Shown: one piece after another, positions 3,671-43,687 of the stretch
How the letters are laid out: the number at the start of each line of letters is the position of its first letter
How positions within the stretch are numbered: the stretch's first letter is position 1
Made by a program: the position numbers and the translations under genes
Notes under the pieces: generated by a model
Database searches by the model: none
What the model was told of the DNA's origin: nothing
The model's input: only the letters and a program-made list of their open reading frames with translations
Source: an uncultured Gammaproteobacteria bacterium
GTDB lineage: Bacteria > Pseudomonadota > Gammaproteobacteria > GCF-002020875
Direction: 5' to 3'
Assembly: GCA_963981015.1 (NCBI GenBank)
Contig: CAXCCG010000004.1
Location: 1,720-65,719, forward strand
DNA length: 64,000 bases

Positions 3671-6600
3671 ATGGCCCCGTTTAATCCAATGGATACTCAG
3701 GAAAACAGACGCATTCTTGCGGTTGATGATGAAGAGGGTGTGCTCGCCCACTACCGGACAATTTTTACCCCGTCCGACCGCAAGGCTCTGCTTGCACAAG
3801 ATCAGTTGTATGGTGTGTTGGAGGATGGTTCGGAGACAGAGCCGAATCTGGGCGCTGAGCAGCCTACCTATCTGCTGGACTGTTTTTCACAAGGTATGGA
3901 TGCGGTTGCAGCAGTCGAAGCCTCATTGAAGGATCAGCAGCCGTATGCGGTAGCACTGATTGATATGCGCATGCAGCCGGGGATCGATGGGCTGGAGACG
4001 GCACAAAGAATCAGGCTTCTGGACAGCGAGGTGAATATTATTTTCATCACCGCCTACAGTGACTATACGACCGATAAAATATTCCACCAGATCAGTGGTT
4101 CGGTACTCTGGTTTCGTAAACCCTTTCATACTGGAGAGATTGTTCAGGCCGTCCGTAATAGCTGTGATCAATGGCATCAGGCGTATGAGTTAGAACAGTT
4201 ACGACAAGATCTGGCCTATCGGGTTGATCTGCAAACCGAGCGTTTGCAGTCAAAAGTAAAGTCACTTTCAATTCTGCAGAGAAACAGTCTCAAACGTGAG
4301 CTGAAAATGGGGGAGATGAAGCGGCAGATCTATAGCTTGAAGGCATTTCAGGATTTGCGACTGCTTCTTTCAAGTAATCCGCTACCGGAGCCGGACGCTT
4401 CCAATACAGAGTTCAGGCCAGTTGAGTTGTTGCTGGTTGATGATACAAGTTCAGCACACTCAACCTATCTGCCACAGTTGACCGCTATCGGGTTTCAGGT
4501 GATGGTTGCAGGCTCTTTTGATGAAGCCTTTAAGCTTGCAACGCGCTCCTCGACTGAAGTAGTTTTGATTGGTATCTGTCTATCCGGTGACTGTGGTAAG
4601 CAGCTGATCACGCAATTGCGTGATGATTCTCATACTCTGTATACATTACCCCTGTTGCTTACCAACAGATGTGATGAGATGGTGGCGGTAGAGGCTGGAG
4701 CAGCCTATTGCATCAATAAAGGGCACCCCGCTTTTCTGAATCAGATGGAGTTGGTGCGTGACTATGTTCAGAAAAACAGATCGCTTCAGTCCGCTTATAT
4801 TCCTGAGAACAACTTCTCTGAAAATCGGCGTGTGTTACTGGTGGATGATGAACCACAAGATTTGGATCTACTTCAAAATTGCCTGAGAAGTGAGGGAGAC
4901 CCCAGTGGTATGGTTCCACTTGAGGAGTTCGTTGATAAGACAAGTAGGCACCATAAGGTGGAAGAGTCGCTGCAACAGAGAGCATTTTTACCTTTTGAGA
5001 TAACAGTACTGAATCAGGGGCTGGATGCTGTTGCTGCGGTACGTGAAGCACAGTTTGTAGAGCGCCCATTCGCAGTGGCAGTAATTGATACGCAGATGTC
5101 ACCGGGGATTGATGGCTTGGAGACGGCGCGGCAAATCCGCCAAATTTCTCCACAAATTGATATTGTGATGTTGAAGGTTGATAGTGACTATTCACTCAAT
5201 CAGATTCGGCAGGTTTTGGGTGGTAATTTTTCTCTGCTAGAAAAGCCTCTTAAAAAGAATGAGATACAACAGCTGGTGGTAGAGGGGTGTGCAAAATGGG
5301 CAATCGCCCACGAGGTCAATACCTCGAATCAGGCGCTGTTGAATCTGGCTGAGGACCTGGAACAGGAGAACATTCTTCGTAGAGAGGTGGAAGAGCAACT
5401 TCTGCAGGCGAGTCATGCCAAAGATGATTTCCTCTCTAATATGAGTCATGAGCTGCGTACGCCACTGACCTCAATCATTGCCAACAGTGAATTTCTGGCA
5501 GAAGAGCTGGTTGATCCGGGTCAGGAGCAGCAGCAGATTATCAAATGCATTGAAGTGGCGGGCCGAAATCAGCTGGCTCTGGTCAATGATATTCTCGACC
5601 TCTCCAAGATTGAGTCAGGAAAATTTACCATTGATAAGACGCTGTATGATCTCTCTTCTCTATTAGAAGATCTTGAGCATATCTTTTTGATTCGTGCAAA
5701 AACGTTGGGCTCTGAACTCACCATTGAGCAGCGAAATAGTGAGCATTTTCAGTTGATTGGAGACCCACAACGGATTACACAGATCTTGATCAACCTGCTG
5801 GGCAATGCGATCAAATTTACACAGAAAGGGGTCATAAGCCTGACAACGGAGGTTCGTGATCAGTGGTTGTGTTTTATCGTTAAAGACAATGGTATCGGGA
5901 TGTCTCCTGAGGCGACGCAAAAGCTCTTCAAAAAATTTGAGCAGGCAGATGGGTCTATTTCACGCCGTTTTGGAGGCAGTGGACTTGGGCTATTCATCTC
6001 ACTAAATTTGTCTGAAATGATGGGGGGGCACATTGAGGTGGAGAGTGAAAAGGGTGTCGGTTCGACCTTTACCTTGACCTTGCCATACAGGCCCAGTGAA
6101 GAGCCTATACCGGAACACAGTACCGGATCCTCCGACCGACAACACTTCTCTGGGACAGTATTACTGGCAGAAGACACACCGGATATACAACAAGTGATTA
6201 TCAGGATGCTTGAGAAAAGAGGCGTTACTGTGACGGCGGCCAATAATGGTCAGGAAGTTTTGGACCAGGCTCTTGTCACACCATTCGACCTGATTTTGAT
6301 GGATATGCAGATGCCGGTGATGGGTGGAGTAGAGGCAACAGAGATGTTGCGAAGTCTTGGCTGTGATACGCCGGTGGTGGCCTTGACGGCTAATGTAATG
6401 AAGAGGCATCGGGACCTGTTTGAGCAGGCAGGAGCTAATGACTTCCTCAACAAACCGATTCATCAACAGGAGTTGAATCGGGTTCTGCAACACTATCTCA
6501 AGCCTGATGATCAATCAGAACAAGCGGTGGAGGATGATGAGCCACTGATCTCTGACGAGCTGCGTATCCTTTTTATTGAACGGGTTATAGAGCAGAGGAA

Positions 6601-6805
6601 GGTATTACCTATATTGTTAAGAGAGCAAAACTGGCCGGAGATCCGGTTGGTTGCCCATAACATGAAGGGAAGTTGTGATATCTATGGTTACTCAGAGATC
6701 GCTGATACAGGAAAAAACATCTCTGATGAGATTGATGCAGGCTCCTATGATGTGGTCGTACCACTGGTGAGTCAGCTTATTGAACAATTGGGTGGGGTTG
6801 AGTAA
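3671..6805 (+). CDS. Cytoplasmic hybrid histidine kinase (3 REC - HisKA - HATPase - REC - Hpt)
   Basis: H box FLSNMSHELRTPL, N box NLLGNAIKFT, DNGIG, GGSGLGL, receiver DMQMP and Hpt AHNMKGS; no obvious transmembrane segment. Confidence 0.9.
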   Translation: MAPFNPMDTQENRRILAVDDEEGVLAHYRTIFTPSDRKALLAQDQLYGVLEDGSETEPNLGAEQPTYLLDCFSQGMDAVAAVEASLKDQQPYAVALIDMRMQPGIDGLETAQRIRLLDSEVNIIFITAYSDYTTDKIFHQISGSVLWFRKPFHTGEIVQAVRNSCDQWHQAYELEQLRQDLAYRVDLQTERLQSKVKSLSILQRNSLKRELKMGEMKRQIYSLKAFQDLRLLLSSNPLPEPDASNTEFRPVELLLVDDTSSAHSTYLPQLTAIGFQVMVAGSFDEAFKLATRSSTEVVLIGICLSGDCGKQLITQLRDDSHTLYTLPLLLTNRCDEMVAVEAGAAYCINKGHPAFLNQMELVRDYVQKNRSLQSAYIPENNFSENRRVLLVDDEPQDLDLLQNCLRSEGDPSGMVPLEEFVDKTSRHHKVEESLQQRAFLPFEITVLNQGLDAVAAVREAQFVERPFAVAVIDTQMSPGIDGLETARQIRQISPQIDIVMLKVDSDYSLNQIRQVLGGNFSLLEKPLKKNEIQQLVVEGCAKWAIAHEVNTSNQALLNLAEDLEQENILRREVEEQLLQASHAKDDFLSNMSHELRTPLTSIIANSEFLAEELVDPGQEQQQIIKCIEVAGRNQLALVNDILDLSKIESGKFTIDKTLYDLSSLLEDLEHIFLIRAKTLGSELTIEQRNSEHFQLIGDPQRITQILINLLGNAIKFTQKGVISLTTEVRDQWLCFIVKDNGIGMSPEATQKLFKKFEQADGSISRRFGGSGLGLFISLNLSEMMGGHIEVESEKGVGSTFTLTLPYRPSEEPIPEHSTGSSDRQHFSGTVLLAEDTPDIQQVIIRMLEKRGVTVTAANNGQEVLDQALVTPFDLILMDMQMPVMGGVEATEMLRSLGCDTPVVALTANVMKRHRDLFEQAGANDFLNKPIHQQELNRVLQHYLKPDDQSEQAVEDDEPLISDELRILFIERVIEQRKVLPILLREQNWPEIRLVAHNMKGSCDIYGYSEIADTGKNISDEIDAGSYDVVVPLVSQLIEQLGGVE

Positions 6806-6914
6806 GGGTGACAAGGTCAGAAGCGAATGGCTGCAGCTGGGTGTGAGTCACTGTTGCGTTGGAGCAGAGTCTTGATAATACCCGCTCTCCCGGTCTGACT
6901 ATCTAAAAGAGCAC

Positions 6915-8063
6915 ATGAGTCTGGATTTTCAACTACAGCAACAGCTGGATGTGCGTAAAGTACAATCGCTCTACCGGATGCGTCGTACAGCCTCTTCACC
7001 GCAGGGGGTGGAGCTTGAGGTCGATGGTCAGCACTATCTATCCTTCAGCAGTAACGACTATCTGGGGCTTGCCAACCATCCACAAATTATCGAGGCCTTT
7101 CAGCAGGGGTTATCCCGCTGGGGAACCGGGAGTGGTGCAGCCCATCTGGTGACCGGACATAGTGCTGCGCACCATGCTCTGGAAGAAGAGCTGGCCGATT
7201 TTCTCGGCTATCCGCGTGTGTTGCTCTTCTCTTCCGGTTATCAGGCCAATCTTGGAGTTCATCAGGCGTTATTGGGGCGCAAGGATAGTACCCTTCATGA
7301 TCGTCTGAACCATGCTTCACTGCTGGATGGAGCCAAACTCTCAGGGGCAAAATTGCTGCGTTATGGTCATACCGATGTCAATGCGCTGGAGCGGCGGCTA
7401 TCTGAAGTCAGCAGTGGACGTATACTGGTGGTGACTGATGGAGTTTTCAGTATGGATGGAGATATCGCTCCGTTATCAGCAATTGCAAACGAGTGTCGTT
7501 GTGGTGGTGCGACCCTGATGGTGGATGATGCGCATGGGATGGGTGTAGAGGGTGCAGAGGGTCGGGGTACGGTCTCCGGGTTTGGGTTAAGCCCTCTGGA
7601 AGTTCCTGTTTTGATGGGGACGTTGGGGAAGGCGTTCGGGGTTTCCGGTGCCTTTGTTGCCGGCAGTGAGGCGCTGATTGAAACCTTGATTCAGCAGGCC
7701 CGAACCTATATCTATACCACGGCAACCCCACCGGCACAGGCAGAGGCAACGCGAAAGGCGCTGCAGTTGGTGAGGGAAGGTGAAGATCGGCGTCAACATC
7801 TACAGCAGTTGATTGCCCGCTTCCGTAGCGGAGCTACAGCACTGGGGCTGAATTTGATGCACTCTGTGACACCAATTCAGCCCCTGTTGGTGGGTGATTC
7901 TGCGGCAGCCCTGCAGCGCTCCAGACAGCTACAGAAGAGCGGCATTCTGGTGGCCCCGATGCGCCCGCCTACGGTACCCGAAGGGGGGGCGCGACTGCGC
8001 ATTACCCTCTCTGCCAACCATACATTTGAACAGGTGGATCGTCTGTTGGAGGCACTTCAGTGA
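6915..8063 (+). CDS. bioF: 8-amino-7-oxononanoate synthase
   Basis: SNDYLGL, DGVFSMDGD, VDDAHG and GTLGKAFG motifs. Confidence 0.96.
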   Translation: MSLDFQLQQQLDVRKVQSLYRMRRTASSPQGVELEVDGQHYLSFSSNDYLGLANHPQIIEAFQQGLSRWGTGSGAAHLVTGHSAAHHALEEELADFLGYPRVLLFSSGYQANLGVHQALLGRKDSTLHDRLNHASLLDGAKLSGAKLLRYGHTDVNALERRLSEVSSGRILVVTDGVFSMDGDIAPLSAIANECRCGGATLMVDDAHGMGVEGAEGRGTVSGFGLSPLEVPVLMGTLGKAFGVSGAFVAGSEALIETLIQQARTYIYTTATPPAQAEATRKALQLVREGEDRRQHLQQLIARFRSGATALGLNLMHSVTPIQPLLVGDSAAALQRSRQLQKSGILVAPMRPPTVPEGGARLRITLSANHTFEQVDRLLEALQ

Positions 8064-36672: not shown

Positions 36673-36760
36673 CAGAGGCTCCTTCTCGAAGGGAAAAATT
36701 AAAATCAGCTGAATGGTAGCAATTTATTGCCTGCAGTGAGAAAGGTTTATGGCGATCATT

Positions 36761-36901
36761 TTAGTTTGGAGATACCCACACCATCTCTTCGCGAAGATTA
36801 ATAGTTCGTGTGTAGCGCGTGTGCTCCCCTTCTATGGCGCGACTCCTGTCAGAGTGTTCATCGGGCCTTACAGTCAGGTACAGATGGTTGGTCATCAGAC
36901 A
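36761..36901 (-). pseudogene. REP-associated tyrosine transposase (RAYT/Y1) remnant
   Basis: Reads CLMTNHLYLTVRPDEHSDRSRAIEGEHTRYTRTINLRE, compared with the RAYT pattern CLMTNHVHL..RAIGEAHRRYTRRINFRE; HUH is altered to HLY and the fragment is truncated at the MITE. Confidence 0.7.
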
Positions 36902-36906
36902 CCTAA

Positions 36907-37085
36907 GGAACCTCTGAACAAGTCTGGGTAATTTGAATTACGTCCATAGCGTCCAAGATCAAGGCGAAGATCGCAGCCAATAGCAGGCTATTAGCAAGAT
37001 TTTCAACCGAGGAACGAGGTCGAGCAACGAAGATATTGGGCGCTATGGGCGTTAGACATTTACACATGACTTATTCAGGGGTTCC
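36907..37085 (+). mobile_element. MITE copy 2 (179 bp)
   Basis: Same TIRs as copy 1, with a CTAA duplication. Confidence 0.85.
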
Positions 37086-37147
37086 CTAAGCCTCTACCCC
37101 TTCTACACGACTCCAATTCAATGGGAGCCAAAGTGGGCCGAATAGTT

Positions 37148-37187
37148 GAAATGTAACGAAATGTAACGAAATGTAACAAAATGTAAC
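37148..37187 (+). repeat. Four tandem 10-bp repeats (GAAATGTAAC x3, then AAAATGTAAC)
   Basis: Read directly from the sequence; lies ~30 bp upstream of the putative DGR promoter. Confidence 0.9.
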
Positions 37188-37219: not shown

Positions 37220-37249
37220 TTGCAAAAGCCATCCTCCTGACACTAGAAT
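37220..37249 (+). promoter_or_regulatory. Putative sigma70 promoter of the DGR operon
   Basis: TTGCAA-18 bp-TAGAAT. Confidence 0.45.
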
Positions 37250-37332
37250 CCCCGCCAACGACAACCAGAGGAATAATGCACTATTTAAAATAACCCATTT
37301 AATCTTGCAGCCTCACGGATGAGGGAACCATT

Positions 37333-38994
37333 ATGACCAACCAACCAACCAACCAACCAACCAACCAACCAACCAACCAACCAACCAACCGAAATAATTC
37401 TCGTTTAGCAGAGCTAAACCAACGATTCAGGCAGTTCTCTCTTCCGCTCCTCCTTGCTGCAACCCTCACCGCTTGTGGCGGTAGTGATGAAGCCGTCGTT
37501 ATCCCCCCCGCCTCCAGCAGCGGTCAGGTACAGAAAGGGCCATACCAGATCGGCTCCACCGTCACCGCCTACCGACTCGATGGTTCCGGTAACCGCACCG
37601 GCGAGAGTGTCACCACCCAGACCACCGACAACCTCGGTAGCTACAGCCTCAACACCGACTGGAGCGGGGCCACCGAAATCGAGGCGAGTGGCAACTTCCT
37701 GGATGAGAGCAGCGGCAATGTCACCACCACCCCGCTCACCCTCAGTGCCGTGGTCGATCTGCAGATGGGGGATACCACCAACATCAACCTCTTCACCCAC
37801 CTCCACGGTACGCGAACCAAAAACCGCATGGCCCTGTTCGGAATCACCACCGCCAGCAGCCTCGCCGCAACCGACCTCAAAAACAGTTACGGGCTACAGC
37901 TGAGCAATAGCACCCAACCCCACCAGCTCGACCTCACCGATGGCAGTGATTCCACCTCCAAATCAGACAACGCCCTGTTGCTGCTCTACTCCGGCGCACT
38001 GGTCACCGGCAATCAGGATGGCTCAGGCACCCTGCAGCAGAGCGTACTCAACAACCTCGCCACCGACTTTGGAGATAACGGTGCCATCGACGGGGTAGGC
38101 AACAGCGCCCATCTCAGTACCCGCACGGCTGCCCGTACCACCAGCATCGACACCCTGCGTACCAACCTGCACAACAACAGTGCCGGTGCCATCACCGATG
38201 CCCCGGCAGAGGCGGACCTGACCGTGCGCCCCTACGCCCTCAAGGCAGGCTTCCTCAACGATACCGGCATCACCCTCTGCGGGGACTACGCCTACGGGGT
38301 CACCGGCAGTGGCAACCACCACAACAACGTCGACTGCACACTCGCCACCGATGTCGATGGTGACCCGGTACCTGATGGGCAGGATGCCGATTATGGACGG
38401 GACAAAACGGCCAACGACAACAGCGATGGTCACGCCGGATTCAGCTTCACCAAACTCGACAGCAACGGTGACCCACTAACGGACCAGAGTGTCGCCTACA
38501 ACGTCACCCCCTGGTCCTGCGTACGCGACAACGTCAGCGGACTGATCTGGGAGGTCAAAACCGACACCGCAGGGCGCCACAACAAGGATGACACATTCAA
38601 CTGGTACAACAGCGACACCACCACCAATGGCGGTAATGCCGGTAGCGCCGATGACGATGGCAATATCTGCTTCGGCTACGATGTCACCGAGGCAGCCAGC
38701 TACTGCAACAGCCAGGCCTACACCGCACGGGTCAACAGCGCCACACTCTGTGGGGCCAGTGACTGGCGCATGCCCACCAGAGAGGAGTTACGCTCCATTG
38801 TCGCCTATGACCGCACTATTCCGGCCATCGACACCGACTACTTCCCCAACACGGTAGCCAACTGGTTCTGGTCGGCCTCGCCGAATGCCGGTATTAGTGA
38901 CAGCGCCTGGATCGTCAACTTCTACTATGGCAACGTCAACAGTGCCAATAAGTCCAATGGATTTCGGTTGCGGTTGGTGCGCGCCGGACAGTGA
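37333..38994 (+). CDS. DGR target 1: lipoprotein with a C-terminal DUF1566/Lcl (C-type-lectin-like) domain
   Basis: GAGGGA RBS, lipobox LTAC, VRDNVSGLIWEVK and DWRMPTREEL; the C-terminus is encoded by VR1. Confidence 0.92.
   Translation: MTNQPTNQPTNQPTNQPTNRNNSRLAELNQRFRQFSLPLLLAATLTACGGSDEAVVIPPASSSGQVQKGPYQIGSTVTAYRLDGSGNRTGESVTTQTTDNLGSYSLNTDWSGATEIEASGNFLDESSGNVTTTPLTLSAVVDLQMGDTTNINLFTHLHGTRTKNRMALFGITTASSLAATDLKNSYGLQLSNSTQPHQLDLTDGSDSTSKSDNALLLLYSGALVTGNQDGSGTLQQSVLNNLATDFGDNGAIDGVGNSAHLSTRTAARTTSIDTLRTNLHNNSAGAITDAPAEADLTVRPYALKAGFLNDTGITLCGDYAYGVTGSGNHHNNVDCTLATDVDGDPVPDGQDADYGRDKTANDNSDGHAGFSFTKLDSNGDPLTDQSVAYNVTPWSCVRDNVSGLIWEVKTDTAGRHNKDDTFNWYNSDTTTNGGNAGSADDDGNICFGYDVTEAASYCNSQAYTARVNSATLCGASDWRMPTREELRSIVAYDRTIPAIDTDYFPNTVANWFWSASPNAGISDSAWIVNFYYGNVNSANKSNGFRLRLVRAGQ
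37336..37390 (+). repeat. Tetranucleotide SSR (CCAA)13, 55-nt tract, in frame (ON state)
   Basis: Perfect repeat starting immediately after the ATG and encoding TNQP repeats. Confidence 0.95.
38865..38994 (+). repeat. DGR variable repeat VR1
   Basis: 130 nt colinear with TR; 12 mismatches at TR adenines plus one G->C in the last sense codon. Confidence 0.96.
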
Positions 38995-39016
38995 TTGGAT
39001 TTTTGAGTAGACGATC

Positions 39017-39409
39017 ATGAGACACCTGCAACGCTACCCCATCTGGCGCGATGCCAACCGCCTGCTGGTTGAGATCGAGCGTGCCGTGCGCGGCTTTCCC
39101 CGTTACCACAAATACACCCTGGGCAGTGAGCTGCGCCGACAGGCGATGACCATCTGTCGGCTGATATCCCGTGCGATCAGTGACAAGCAGCGACAGTATC
39201 ACCACCTGGAACGGCTGAAGCTTGCGGTCGATGACCTCAAGACCCAGATTCAGCTTGCCAAAGAGCTGCAGGTCTTTTCCAGTTTTACCCAATTTCAGAC
39301 GCTATCGGAACTTGCCGTAGCCGTCGGCAGACAGAGCGGGGGGTGGGCCAAACGGTTGATCAGCAACAACCCGAAGTCCCCTTCTGTAACCGAAGGGGGC
39401 GTGTGTTGA
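39017..39409 (+). CDS. avd: DGR accessory variability determinant (Avd, four-helix bundle)
   Basis: FPRYHKYTLGSELR and VGRQSGGW; basic 130-aa protein between VR1 and TR. Confidence 0.88.
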   Translation: MRHLQRYPIWRDANRLLVEIERAVRGFPRYHKYTLGSELRRQAMTICRLISRAISDKQRQYHHLERLKLAVDDLKTQIQLAKELQVFSSFTQFQTLSELAVAVGRQSGGWAKRLISNNPKSPSVTEGGVC

Positions 39410-39546
39410 ACTCACTGTGCGCCCGTACCCCCCTTGTACGACGAGGGGATGGTGATACAGACCTTGCTACCAGCAGGATGGAAGGTCGGTGGGGAAGAGG
39501 GAATTCATCCCCTCTTTCTGTGAAGTGTATGGGTTATTCCTGTCCT

Positions 39547-39676
39547 GTTCTGGTCGGCCTCGCCGAATGCCAATAATAGTGACAACGCCTGGATCGTCAA
39601 CTTCAACAATGGCAACGACAACAATGACAATAAGTCCAATGAAAATCGGTTGCGGTTGGTGCGCGCCGGAGAGTGA
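39547..39676 (+). ncRNA. DGR template repeat (TR)
   Basis: AAT/AAC-rich template copy of both VRs, with 35 adenines in the variable part, between avd and RT. Confidence 0.96.
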
Positions 39677-41159
39677 GCTGGCGACGCTCTTCAATTTTCC
39701 CGCACTCTGGCAGGCCTATATCACCTGTCGCAAGGGAAAACGGGGGAGTCGCAATACCCAGCACTACGAGATCAGCCTGCTGGATCGACTGATTGATACG
39801 CTGGATGCGCTGAAAACAGCCCGATGGACCCCCTCCCGCTCTGTACTCTTTGTCGTTACCCGCCCCAAGATGCGCGAGATCCACGCAGCAGACTTTTCAG
39901 ACCGGGTGGTTCACCATCTGCTGGTGCCCCGGCTGGAACGGCTCTATGAGCCAACCTTTATTCACGACAGCTACTCCAACCGAAAAGGCAAAGGGACCCA
40001 TGCAGCCGTAGAGCGACTGCAGCACTTTATGCGCAAGGTGACCCGTAATCAGACCCGGCCAGCCCACTACCTTCAGTTGGACATCGCTAACTTCTTCAAT
40101 ACGATTGATCGCCCTACGCTCTGGAAACAGCTACAACATCGACTGCGCAAGGCGCAACAGAGGGGGGCAGAGGATAGAGGAGTGACACCACAAGAGCAGC
40201 AGGAACTGCTCTGGCTCACCCACCGTATCCTCAGGCAGAATCCCACAGAGCATGCCCTATTGCGAGGTTCCCCCGATGAATTTGCCCGGATCCCTCAGCA
40301 CAAAAGGCTCTCGGCAGCACCAGCTGACAAAGGGCTTCCCATCGGCAACCTGACCAGCCAGTTCTTCGCCAACGTCTATCTTAACGAACTGGACCAGTTC
40401 ATCAAGCACACCCTCAAGGCGGACTACTATCTTCGCTATGTGGATGATTTCATTCTACTGCACCAGAACCCGGAGCAGCTGGAGCAGTGGAGAAAAGAGA
40501 TTGCCGATTTTCTTCAGCAGAGACTACAGCTGAAGCTGCGCCCTCAACAAATCCTCAAACCGGTTACCGATGGGGCCGACTTCCTCGGCTACATTGTGCG
40601 ACCCGACTACCGTCTGGTACGCCGAAGAGTGGTCGGGCACCTGAGAGAGCGGTTACAGCACCTTCAGCAACAGCTGATAGAGAGAACAAAAAAAGGGACC
40701 ACCCTGCGCTTAAAGCAGGCACACCGACAACAGCTACATGCCATGCTGGCAAGTTATCTCGCCCATATCCGTCATGCCAGTAGCCACAACCTGCTACAGA
40801 CACTATGGAGAGAGTTTTCGTGGCTGGATCATGTTTTTCAGCGGCCAGAGAGTGCGACAGCAACACTCCTTCCCCGTTGGAAACCAGAGCGTGTCAGCTC
40901 CTTCGCCAGTCAGCAACGCTGGTTTAAACAGAGACTGCCCGGCTACCACCTGCTGATCCAGCGTGGTAGTGCATTTCTGGTCGCGAATCATGCAGAAGAG
41001 GAGGGCAGAGAGATCCCACTTAACAGCCTTAAATCGATACGAACCAACCTGCGTAACCGACAGATCCCACACGCCTTTATTGCCGAAGAGGGGTACCTGA
41101 AAGGGGGGCTCAAACAGCGGGTTCTGCGACTGCTCTGGCAACCCACACCAATGATCTGA
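39639..41159 (+). CDS. DGR reverse transcriptase with a C-terminal MutS-I-like extension (start uncertain; frame open from 39489)
   Basis: CRKGKR, REIHAADFSDRVVHH, QLDIANFF, the DGR signature GLPIGNLTSQ, YLRYVDDF and DFLGY. Confidence 0.95.
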   Translation: MKIGCGWCAPESELATLFNFPALWQAYITCRKGKRGSRNTQHYEISLLDRLIDTLDALKTARWTPSRSVLFVVTRPKMREIHAADFSDRVVHHLLVPRLERLYEPTFIHDSYSNRKGKGTHAAVERLQHFMRKVTRNQTRPAHYLQLDIANFFNTIDRPTLWKQLQHRLRKAQQRGAEDRGVTPQEQQELLWLTHRILRQNPTEHALLRGSPDEFARIPQHKRLSAAPADKGLPIGNLTSQFFANVYLNELDQFIKHTLKADYYLRYVDDFILLHQNPEQLEQWRKEIADFLQQRLQLKLRPQQILKPVTDGADFLGYIVRPDYRLVRRRVVGHLRERLQHLQQQLIERTKKGTTLRLKQAHRQQLHAMLASYLAHIRHASSHNLLQTLWREFSWLDHVFQRPESATATLLPRWKPERVSSFASQQRWFKQRLPGYHLLIQRGSAFLVANHAEEEGREIPLNSLKSIRTNLRNRQIPHAFIAEEGYLKGGLKQRVLRLLWQPTPMI

Positions 41160-41182: not shown

Positions 41183-41707
41183 ATGTACATACTGAAAACA
41201 ACCTTCACCCTGCTGTTCTGTGCACTGCCGTTCCTCACTCATGCCGCACAGAGCTGCAACAGCGCCATCCCGCGCAGTGCCCCCGACAGCCGCTATATCG
41301 ACCATGGTGACCGTACCGTGACCGACAGCGAAACCGGGCTGATGTGGAAGCAGTGTAGTGAAGGGTTGAGTGATAGTGGTTGCGTCAGCGGGGCCATTGA
41401 AACCTTTAACTGGCAAGAGGCGATGGCACGGGCAGAGAGCATCAACAGCGGTGCCGGGTTTGCCGGATATACCGACTGGCGGGTCCCCGATATCAAGGAG
41501 TTGGCCTCGCTGGTCGAGATCGCCTGCTACTCACCGGCAATCAATGAGACCCTGTTTCCTGCGACCCCCGCCAGTGGGTTCTGGTCGGCCTCGCCGCATG
41601 CCCTTAGTAGTGACTACGCCTGGGTCGTCCTCTTCAGCAATGGCGGCGACAACGATGACGCTAAGTCCGATGCCTATCGGTTGCGGTTGGTGCGCGCCGG
41701 ACAGTGA
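41183..41707 (+). CDS. DGR target 2: secreted DUF1566/Lcl protein
   Basis: Signal peptide, TVTDSETGLMWKQCSEG and DWRVPDIKEL; the C-terminus is encoded by VR2. Confidence 0.92.
   Translation: MYILKTTFTLLFCALPFLTHAAQSCNSAIPRSAPDSRYIDHGDRTVTDSETGLMWKQCSEGLSDSGCVSGAIETFNWQEAMARAESINSGAGFAGYTDWRVPDIKELASLVEIACYSPAINETLFPATPASGFWSASPHALSSDYAWVVLFSNGGDNDDAKSDAYRLRLVRAGQ
41578..41707 (+). repeat. DGR variable repeat VR2
   Basis: 130 nt colinear with TR; 18 mismatches at TR adenines plus the same G->C as VR1. Confidence 0.96.
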
Positions 41708-41734
41708 GTTGGTTTTTTGAATTTGAAATAGTGA

Positions 41735-43687
41735 ATGGAAGCACAGTTTATGAATAGAGTAGATAAGCTTAGAAGATCAGTTTTTTGGGCTCTGTTGTTG
41801 GTCACGGTGTTACTGCAGACCGGCTGTGTCCAGAATACGGCCTTCAGGACAGAAGCAGATGAGATATTGATCAAGGGTGCAGAATTAGAAATACCGTACG
41901 ACATCGCCTTTATCGAATTCGATGATCAGGGGCAGTACCAGAATCCGTCTCAGAGAGATTTGGTGCTGGAGCAACTGGCTGAGATCTCTGATTCGAGCGA
42001 TACAATTGTGGTGACCTATGTGCATGGGTGGACTCATAACGCCAAACAGGGGGACTGTGATGTGGCAGAATTTCTGGGACTGCTCCAACAGCTGGGGGAT
42101 ATAGAGCAGTTCAAAGAGAATGGCAGAAAGGTTCTGGGAATCTATATTGGCTGGCGGGGTAGCGCCATCGACTCGGATCTGCTGGAATGGACCACGTTTC
42201 TGGATCGAAAAAATGCCGCACTGAGAGCCGCGACCAGTGATGTGGTGGAACTCTTTTCTGCCCTGCACCACTGGCGTGACCGCAAATGGAAGGAGTATAG
42301 CTGGATCAAGAAGAACCCGAGCCGTCTGATTATGGTGGGGCACAGTTTGGGGGCGAGTCTGGTCTATAGCGCAATCTATCAGGTGATGATCGATAATTTC
42401 AGAGAGGCACAGACCCTGTCCGGGAGTGGAATCGTAGACCAGAACCATATTGTTCAGGGTTTTGGTGATCTGGTGGTGTTGGTCAATCCGGCCCTGGAAG
42501 CGGCCAGTGTTCAAACCCTCTGGAGGATGCAGCATGAGGTGATTCGTGCAGCGGATCAGAACCGGAAAAAGGGGGTAGTCGGGTTTTCAATACGGCAACA
42601 GCCGGAGCTGGTGGTGCTGGGGTCTGAATCGGACTATGCGACTAAAATTGCATTTGCCGTGAGCCAGTCGGTTGGTAGCGTATTTGAGACTTATCGCTAC
42701 AACCATGAACGTAATGATCTTGATGGAGCAGTCAATTTTCCCCCCGAAGAGCAGTTTCAGGCCGATACCACGGCGATTGGTCACTATCGTCCCTATCGAA
42801 CGCACCGCTTGATGAAAAATGAGACTGCTAGGGATGAACGTATTGATATGGCTGACGAAGGGAAGGGTGAGGCAGATGAAATCAGGAGGTGCGAACAGGG
42901 AATCAGGAAACCCGGCGCACTGACCTCTCTGGTCCGACAGGTACACAACCGGGAAGAAGACCCTGTCTGCTTTCCCTACTGGTTTGTTGCCGTCGACAAA
43001 GCGTTGATGGATGGGCACAGTGCCAATCTGGGTAGTAATGATGAAATCAAAGATTTCATCGAAAAGGTGGTGCTGAGTAAACTGGATAACAAGTTTCTGA
43101 ATGAGAAATACAGGAACCGGGTAACCCGTACGGTGTATGGGGTACCGAAAACCGGGCAGGAGCACTGCTACGATACTACAGGACAACTAGCCTCCTGTGC
43201 AGATACCGGGCAGGATGGGGAGTTCAAGAGTGGCATCAGCCACCCTGTGCCACGGTTTGAAGCGATGGAGAGCGGTGTCATCAAGGATAACCTGACCGGG
43301 CTGGTGTGGCTCAAAGAGGTGGACTGTGAGGTACTCAACCCCGATGAAGCCGGTAGCGCCTGGCCGGTAAAGGTAGAAGAGATCCAGCAGTTGGAGAGCG
43401 GTCAGTGTGGTCTCAACGATCTCTCGCGTGCCGGGGACTGGAGACTGCCCAATCGCAATGAACTCAATTCACTCTTCTATCTGGGGGAGAAACATCCGAT
43501 ACTCTCCTTAACAGGAGAAGAGGTCATGGCAAAACGGATTTGGTCCTCCACCAGCGAGCAAAAGAGTGAAGGCAAAAAGGCATGGATGGCGGATCTGGAA
43601 CAGGGGGTAATGGCGGCTGTGGACAAGATAGGACAGAAGGGGTATCTCTGGGCGGTCAGGGGTGCGGTACCTTCACGGGGAGAGTGA
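41735..43687 (+). CDS. Lipoprotein: alpha/beta-hydrolase-like domain fused to a DUF1566 domain
   Basis: Lipobox-like QTGC, YVHGW and GHSLG, then VPKTGQ, DNLTGLVW, DWRLPNRNEL, WSST and WAVR. Confidence 0.75.
   Translation: MEAQFMNRVDKLRRSVFWALLLVTVLLQTGCVQNTAFRTEADEILIKGAELEIPYDIAFIEFDDQGQYQNPSQRDLVLEQLAEISDSSDTIVVTYVHGWTHNAKQGDCDVAEFLGLLQQLGDIEQFKENGRKVLGIYIGWRGSAIDSDLLEWTTFLDRKNAALRAATSDVVELFSALHHWRDRKWKEYSWIKKNPSRLIMVGHSLGASLVYSAIYQVMIDNFREAQTLSGSGIVDQNHIVQGFGDLVVLVNPALEAASVQTLWRMQHEVIRAADQNRKKGVVGFSIRQQPELVVLGSESDYATKIAFAVSQSVGSVFETYRYNHERNDLDGAVNFPPEEQFQADTTAIGHYRPYRTHRLMKNETARDERIDMADEGKGEADEIRRCEQGIRKPGALTSLVRQVHNREEDPVCFPYWFVAVDKALMDGHSANLGSNDEIKDFIEKVVLSKLDNKFLNEKYRNRVTRTVYGVPKTGQEHCYDTTGQLASCADTGQDGEFKSGISHPVPRFEAMESGVIKDNLTGLVWLKEVDCEVLNPDEAGSAWPVKVEEIQQLESGQCGLNDLSRAGDWRLPNRNELNSLFYLGEKHPILSLTGEEVMAKRIWSSTSEQKSEGKKAWMADLEQGVMAAVDKIGQKGYLWAVRGAVPSRGE

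Follow-up and report, generated by a model that had tools for sequence, protein, structure and literature searches.

In a 64,000-nt stretch of DNA from an uncultured marine Gammaproteobacteria bacterium (GCA_963981015.1, contig CAXCCG010000004.1, positions 1,720-65,719, forward strand; this whole stretch is called the window below) we found a perfect tetranucleotide repeat tract directly behind the start codon of the first target gene of an active diversity-generating retroelement (DGR). The target is predicted to be a surface lipoprotein. From the placement and structure of the tract we consider it probable that it serves as a slipped-strand contingency switch, which would turn this gene ON and OFF by changes in unit number. 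DGRs and repeat-tract phase variation are the two best-known bacterial ways of aiming mutation at chosen genes, and to our knowledge they have so far been treated as separate strategies. A gene with both would let the population hedge whether to display a surface protein and also which binding tip to display.

Repeat tract and reading frame

The tract, (ACCA)13+ACC, occupies positions 37336-37390 (+), immediately 3' of the ATG at 37333-37335 (+). Tandem Repeats Finder gave it a period of 4, 13.8 copies, 100% matches and 0 indels, and direct reading of the sequence agreed. An earlier interpretation made from the letters alone (the sequence-only reading) had described a perfect 55-nt ACCA/CCAA tract after this ATG with a GAGGGA ribosome-binding site, and this was confirmed; its label (CCAA)13 was right about the perfect repeat, and the unit count is amended here to 13.75. 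The Shine-Dalgarno-like GAGGGA was read at 37321-37326 (+), with a 6-nt spacer to the ATG, which is the sole canonical start codon opening into the tract. The in-frame stop upstream is TAA 37300. Of the two other frames that lead into the tract, one ends at TGA 37320 and one at TGA 37334, and neither has a start codon between its stop and the tract.

Translated from ATG 37333 the tract gives (TNQP)4TN, and the frame stays open for 553 codons, to 38994. The assembled tract length is in frame (ON), and the two shifted frames both stop within 16 nt after the tract (37395-37408, +), at TAA 37395 and TAG 37406, which on re-reading of the sequence was as the sequence-only reading had stated. It had also noted that no ATG, GTG or TTG lies in frame between the tract and the LTAC lipobox. 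This was found to hold up to the lipobox Cys codon at 37474 and to extend to the near-cognate codons CTG, ATT, ATC and ATA; past the tract, the first near-cognate start in the frame of the open reading frame (ORF) is the ATC of residue 57 and the first canonical one is the GTG of residue 140. When the unit number was varied in silico from 8 to 18, a full-length product was obtained only with 10, 13 and 16 units, and all other numbers gave peptides of 14-31 aa.

A listing of simple sequence repeats (SSRs) of 18 nt or more in the assembly (2.48 Mb, 130 contigs), which includes all tetranucleotide tracts of at least five units, contains no other repeat with a 4-nt unit, and a chance origin is therefore excluded. 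That 13 units occur without any synonymous difference points to a process at the DNA level. Next to the start codon we also observed a 5-codon upstream ORF (37319-37336, from ATG 37319 to TGA 37334), the stop of which overlaps the main start as ATGA; it may be a chance occurrence or a coupling device.

Target gene 1 and its lipoprotein leader

Target gene 1 (37333-38994, +) encodes 553 aa with an Lcl_C/DUF1566-type C-terminal domain (Pfam PF07603, E 3.3e-32, residues 396-550). Its translation starts with a 48-codon lipoprotein leader (37333-37476, +), in which the tract is followed by the basic stretch RNNSRLAELNQRFRQFS and then by LPLLLAATLTAC, with the hydrophobic LPLLLAATLTA and the lipobox LTAC that ends in Cys48. 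With this L-x-x-C lipobox, a hydrophobic stretch and a basic n-region, the protein is predicted to be a bacterial lipoprotein of the Lol/Lsp pathway. The tract lies upstream of Cys48, so it would be cleaved off with the leader and have no structural role in the mature protein.

A homologue search returned only P0001, a partial product of this gene covering residues 82-553, and P0002-P0004, three distant lipoproteins that match the N-terminal domain at 30-42% identity. P0003 shares the lipobox in register (LAAT..LTACGG), and P0004 shares LLLAAT and has its Cys two positions later. P0002 has a lipobox of its own near the N-terminus and was left outside the register of the alignment. In both P0003 and P0004 only 8 residues precede the hydrophobic core, compared to 36 in target 1, which indicates that the tract and the basic stretch are an N-terminal addition (insertion). 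The exact target protein was absent from a collection of 15 billion proteins. In 40 relatives there was no orthologue of the N-terminal half, and none with a tract; the best relatives match the C-terminal half only, at no more than 48% identity, and none of the other Lcl_C genes examined in relatives had a 5' repeat tract like that of target 1.

The diversity-generating retroelement

Target 1 is the first gene of the element, as the sequence-only reading had proposed, and avd (accessory variability determinant) starts 22 nt past its stop (39017-39409, +; Pfam bAvd PF22296, E 2.5e-12, 47.6 bits against a cut-off of 40). A family of 148-nt repeats (D1) has three copies, which are the variable repeat VR1 at the 3' end of target 1 (38857-39004, +), the template repeat (TR) between avd and the reverse transcriptase (RT) gene (39539-39686, +; 39 adenines in 148 nt), and VR2 at the 3' end of target 2 (41570-41717, +). 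The RT ORF as listed spans 39489-41159 (+), with Pfam RVT_1 (E 9.4e-20) at residues 127-369 of the listed ORF; the true start probably lies past the TR. Target gene 2 (41183-41707, +) encodes 174 aa with a signal peptide and Lcl_C (PF07603, E 1.4e-37) and has no SSR at its 5' end. In the repeat core all mismatches to the TR fall on TR adenines, 13/13 for VR1 and 19/19 for VR2, and mismatches at other TR letters are confined to the outer 8 and 16 nt.

Directly after target 2 the window holds a third Lcl_C protein of 650 aa (41735-43687), with weak matches to alpha/beta-hydrolases or lipases. It has no copy of the TR repeat and is thus apparently not diversified.

Tract and variable repeats in public sequencing runs

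Of the words sampled from the 2 kb around the tract, at least 69% are present in each of 20 marine runs from 16 studies. We examined four of these runs, three of DNA and one of RNA, which come from at least three studies and from samples of 2012, 2016 and 2019. The run data were Logan contigs with k=31, which cannot cross a period-4 tract longer than 31 nt. In all four runs a contig that comes in from the left flank stops after about 30 nt of tract, or one begins about 30 nt before the right end of the tract, and in records 19, 20, 29, 30, 5 and 13 a further 36-40 letters extend past the aligned part, at the tract. With about 30 nt of the tract attached to the correct flanks in four runs, an assembly artefact is excluded and the tract is at least about 31 nt long. 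An artefact had been named by the sequence-only reading as an outcome that would overturn it, and the public runs contradict it.

The variable repeats differed between the runs and the window. DNA run X4 and RNA run X15, from the same study, differ from the window at 18 sites in VR1, all 18 of which are TR adenines, and outside VR1 no X4 or X15 difference was listed anywhere in target gene 1. The contigs of run X2 are interrupted at VR1 and at VR2, and the VR pieces have a lower depth, as expected of mixed variants. The DGR is complete, with RT, Avd, TR and two VRs, and is active in nature.

Proposed mechanism, expression and polarity

According to the sequence, translation would start only at ATG 37333 and would have to cross the tract to reach the lipoprotein leader. 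With 13 (or 10 or 16) units the 553-aa surface lipoprotein would be made, and gain or loss of one or two units would lead the ribosome to TAA 37395 or TAG 37406 and yield a 14-31-aa peptide. Slippage during replication would shift the unit number frequently and reversibly, as happens in equally long, perfect tetranucleotide tracts elsewhere, and the population would always mix cells with and without the lipoprotein. Separately, the DGR would rewrite the C-terminal ligand-binding tip of the lipoprotein at the positions of the TR adenines. The sequence-only reading had held that one gene joins ON/OFF switching and DGR diversification; the active DGR target and the switch anatomy stood, and the switching itself we infer.

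A promoter-like site, TTGCAA-18-TAGAAT (37220-37249, +), lies about 84 nt upstream of the start codon and matches 9 of 12 positions in a consensus scan. It is the one such site on the + strand, upstream of target 1, and it stands as a consensus match only, the region having 2 promoter-like sites compared to a shuffle mean of 1.5 and so no excess. In the 22-nt gap between target 1 and avd there is no promoter-like or terminator-like site on the + strand. An RNA contig of X15 (record 13, 2477 nt, depth 37.9) runs from within the tract through target 1, avd and TR to 39837. Elsewhere the X15 depth was 0-7.5 in the RT region and 2.2 in the intergenic bin 36684-36867, and such uneven depth argues for RNA and against carried-over DNA.

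In OFF cells avd, TR and RT might be preceded by about 1.6 kb of mRNA that is untranslated and rich in C, and Rho-dependent polarity could perhaps lower the mutagenesis machinery as well. The genome encodes Rho, and the target mRNA after the tract contains 34.9% C and 24.9% G, with windows of up to 42% C against 17% G. That an OFF allele is polar on avd, TR and RT, as the sequence-only reading had suggested, is plausible on circumstantial grounds, and on balance we rather doubt it.

Just upstream of the target promoter region, at 36903-37091, we observed a repeat of about 187 nt, similar to a miniature inverted-repeat transposable element (MITE) in that its end segments match inverted as well. 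A blastn search placed 119 matches on many contigs of the genome, and each of the four runs covers the repeat at a depth in the thousands. This depth had raised the suspicion of a tRNA or other RNA gene at 36903-37091, which was rejected, as ARAGORN reported 0 genes and Rfam 0 matches. The stretch from the MITE-like repeat to the promoter-like site contains (GAAATGTAAC)4 with one variant unit (37148-37187). The genome has no other array of this kind and contains the single 10-mer 6 times in total; the array could be a binding site for a regulator.

Tracts at other DGR loci of the class

RT relatives with 31-60% identity sit in other DGR-like loci. A class-level sample of 400 genomes contained 17 with an RT relative, and we examined 14 loci from 13 of these genomes together with a locus on contig C77 of the same genome as the window. 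A comparable tract was found in 0/15 loci (124.7 kb), many of which are on short contigs that may lack the 5' end of the target. In viral contigs, 0 of 36 (CCAA)8 blocks adjoin an RT or avd relative.

The C77 locus (about 4395-7815, -) is a second DGR-like locus of the genome. Its RT is 60% identical to that of the window, and it encodes large Lcl_C proteins, with open frames 1130 and 1223 aa long, and has no repeat tract. In a genome of the same genus (G004) a family of secreted Lcl_C paralogues has runs of G8-G10 located some 210-250 nt past the start; the member with G9 has an intact frame (1009 aa), and that with G10 is split into frames of 85 aa and 837 aa.

Repeat tracts in avd of Patescibacteria

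A scan for (CCAA)8 in one genome per species returned at least 120 blocks from very diverse phyla. Two blocks among these listed matches also hold a DGR-type RT, and both are from metagenome-assembled genomes (MAGs) of Patescibacteria (G041 and G042). In G041 (locus L150) the target, TR and RT are on one strand and avd on the opposite strand. The avd gene (L150:7849-8268, +) begins with ATG-GTG-GTA-(CCAA)10, with the tract (7859-7898) in frame and read as TNQP, and homology to bAvd begins just behind the tract (E 3.4e-9, 37.6 bits, below the cut-off of 40). This avd would be ON at 7, 10 and 13 units, and other counts stop at once. The RT starts divergently at 7847 (-), and the tract lies 11 nt upstream of it as well. 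Judged by this arrangement, G041 is an independent case of the design seen in the window.

The second MAG (G042, Paceibacterota) has (GGTT)11 at L151:11444-11487, 56 nt past the RT stop, and a relation to the DGR is not evident; the repeat lies 75 nt before an ORF that resembles tryptophanyl-tRNA synthetase, a name given from the sequence alone. A second DGR of G042 (L152) has a C11 run 10 nt upstream of its RT.

We then searched 401 genomes of Patescibacteria with the RT of G041, a seed locus that had itself been found via its tract, and obtained relatives in 96. The 30 best loci (L192-L221) and 20 lower-ranked ones (L261-L280, RT 44-51% identical) were examined; the sequences are MAG consensus, in which homopolymer lengths may be wrong. 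RT and avd matches were present in 28 of the 30 best loci, and a tract in the 5' region of avd in 24 of these 28. The tracts were poly-C of 8-17, (CT/GA)8-18, (CA/TG)10-14 and (CCAA)10, and all 24 fall between a conserved N-terminal peptide of avd (M-x-x-F/L-N/S-x-H...) and the avd core. In the four loci that lack a tract, avd runs uninterrupted and has this N-terminal motif too, which shows that avd really starts at the ATG ahead of the tract. Elsewhere in the 113 kb of the best loci only 3 further tracts occur.

Fourteen of the 20 lower-ranked loci had a tract, one of them being (ACAG)9. Combined, a tract lies a few codons past the avd ATG in 38/48 loci of this Patescibacteria DGR clade, with avd and RT head to head. 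The two parts of avd are in frame in 7 of the 38 loci with a tract and out of frame in 31, and these 31 divide 16:15 between the two shifted frames. Such an even split argues against a single programmed frameshift and for free-running length change.

Repeat tracts on parts of DGRs thus seem to be recurrent. We propose, tentatively, that tract phase variation is a recurrent and undescribed layer of DGR control: in the window it would switch the lipoprotein, and in Patescibacteria the avd tracts would make hypermutation stochastic, being OFF in most cells.

Alternative explanations

Several observations weigh against the contingency switch. The k=31 contigs stop inside the tract in 4/4 runs, so length variants could not show. 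The exact pattern of flank, tract and flank had 0 matches in Joint Genome Institute (JGI) metagenome contigs, a protein-guided scan of the same contigs gave 46 pattern matches with 0 confirmed, and the right flank had 0 matches in viral contigs; no second full copy of the target 5' end was found in JGI contigs, viral contigs or protein look-ups. The genome has few other long repeat tracts, so the organism is not a typical species rich in contingency loci, and a tract of this kind is missing from all 15 other DGR loci examined in the class. The slippage rate is borrowed by analogy from Haemophilus. For the proposed effect on the mutagenesis genes, the RNA contigs show neither a single transcript nor its 5' end, and co-transcription and polarity are what we infer.

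The main rival is an incidental microsatellite that expanded in a leader tolerant of it. Such a tract would slip mechanically and its OFF variants would be lost, with no selected switching and no link to the DGR. The poverty of the genome in other contingency-like tracts, the lack of a tract-bearing orthologue among the 40 relatives and of a similar tract in the 15 other DGR loci of the class, and the ON state of the assembly would all fit this explanation. However, 13 identical and uninterrupted units argue for recent and ongoing slippage and against decay, the position just after the ATG with both other frames stopped within 16 nt is a switch-like arrangement, and in 38/48 loci of Patescibacteria a DGR gene again has a repeat tract at its 5' coding end. 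We regard the incidental microsatellite as unlikely. It is still far more credible than a tract in an untranslated 5' leader RNA, with the protein beginning downstream or at a non-standard codon, which we consider very improbable. This was raised as the gene callers gave only the partial P0001, from residue 82, and no support for it was found. P0001 begins at a CTC codon, as would be expected where the end of a contig truncates a gene. The tract is preceded by an ATG with GAGGGA 6 nt before it, no canonical or near-cognate start lies between tract and Cys48, and a start at residue 140 would lose the leader common to two homologues.

That the tract is an assembly artefact or chimera is the least credible of the alternatives, with hardly any chance of being true. 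The genome is a draft of 130 contigs, several of which end in repeat tracts, but the 55-nt tract is shorter than the usual read length, and four public runs from at least three studies join about 30 nt of it to the correct left or right flank. The slipped-strand switch on the first target of the DGR is the explanation we prefer.

Comparison with known systems

The closest parallel to the tract is found in the hgp genes of Haemophilus influenzae, which encode haemoglobin and haemoglobin-haptoglobin receptors. As in the window, the unit is CCAA, the repeat is read in frame close to the 5' end of a surface-protein gene, and the number of units sets the frame. According to the part of the source available to us, H. 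influenzae tetranucleotide tracts undergo about 1e-4 unit changes per generation, and hgp genes have 4-39 CCAA units among 16 strains (PMC2651432), a range that includes the 13.75 perfect units of the window tract. H. influenzae is a host-adapted pathogen and the bacterium of the window is free-living and marine; the window gene, unlike hgp, is also a DGR target that is hypermutated at its other end, and its tract lies inside a lipoprotein leader that would be cleaved. Length variation is known for hgp and presumed for the window.

Neisseria opa genes have CTCTT repeats in the region coding for the leader peptide. They resemble the window in having a non-triplet repeat in the part coding for the signal peptide, which sets the frame of an outer-surface protein. 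In contrast to the window, the opa unit is a pentamer, the genes form a multigene family, and antigenic change comes about by recombination and not by a retroelement.

With regard to the DGR, the target LdtA of Legionella pneumophila is described, in the available part of the survey by Wu et al., as a surface lipoprotein of DUF1566 type belonging to 'category d' (PMC5758913). Likened by this description only, the window element is a complete DGR of the LdtA type, 'category d', with a lipoprotein target, a C-terminal variable region of DUF1566/Lcl_C type, and avd, TR and RT downstream. The window differs in having a second small target after the RT. A repeat tract is not known to have been reported for ldtA.

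The avd tracts of Patescibacteria share with the window a hypermutable tract a few codons past the ATG of a DGR gene, and in G041 also the CCAA unit read as TNQP. They differ from it in being in avd, head to head with RT, and not in the target, in being mostly poly-C or dinucleotide, and in being out of frame in 31/38 loci. We know of no description of these tracts.

The sequence-only reading knew of no described coupling of tract switching to a DGR, and a search of the full-text literature likewise turned up no paper that describes one; supplements were outside its coverage, and an earlier mention, for example in the DGR literature on the candidate phyla radiation (CPR), is possible. In the available text of one DGR survey the words 'phase', 'tetranucleotide', 'simple repeat' and 'promoter' are absent (PMC5758913), and the main text of another does not contain 'phase vari', 'homopolymer', 'simple sequence', 'frameshift' or 'tandem repeat' (PMC8144416). 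In the accessible parts of two further articles, terms for DGRs and for phase variation occur in unrelated contexts (PMC10053308 and PMC8987985).

The architecture is that of a textbook slipped-strand switch placed on a DGR target, and is a combination of two known kinds of system and not a new kind. Its interest lies in the combination, in the free-living marine host and in the hint from Patescibacteria that tracts on DGR genes recur. The pattern in Patescibacteria suggests that such gating may be common where DGRs are most abundant. A gene with both systems also makes testable an open question on DGRs, namely by what means, if at all, cells hold back a mutator whose constant activity is costly. 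Ordinary metagenomic reads suffice to obtain the ratio of ON to OFF alleles at the tract, which can be set against VR diversity and the RNA levels of avd and RT.

A further tract in the genome

One other long non-triplet tract near a gene start was found in the genome. It consists of at least 11 units of (ATTGT) and ends contig C9 (42536-42590), and the rotated form (GTATT) starts contig C8 (1-55). It lies about 120 nt upstream of an ORF for a hexapeptide-repeat transferase (Hexapep, E 2.9e-14), and it may be a second contingency-like locus of this genome, located in a promoter region.

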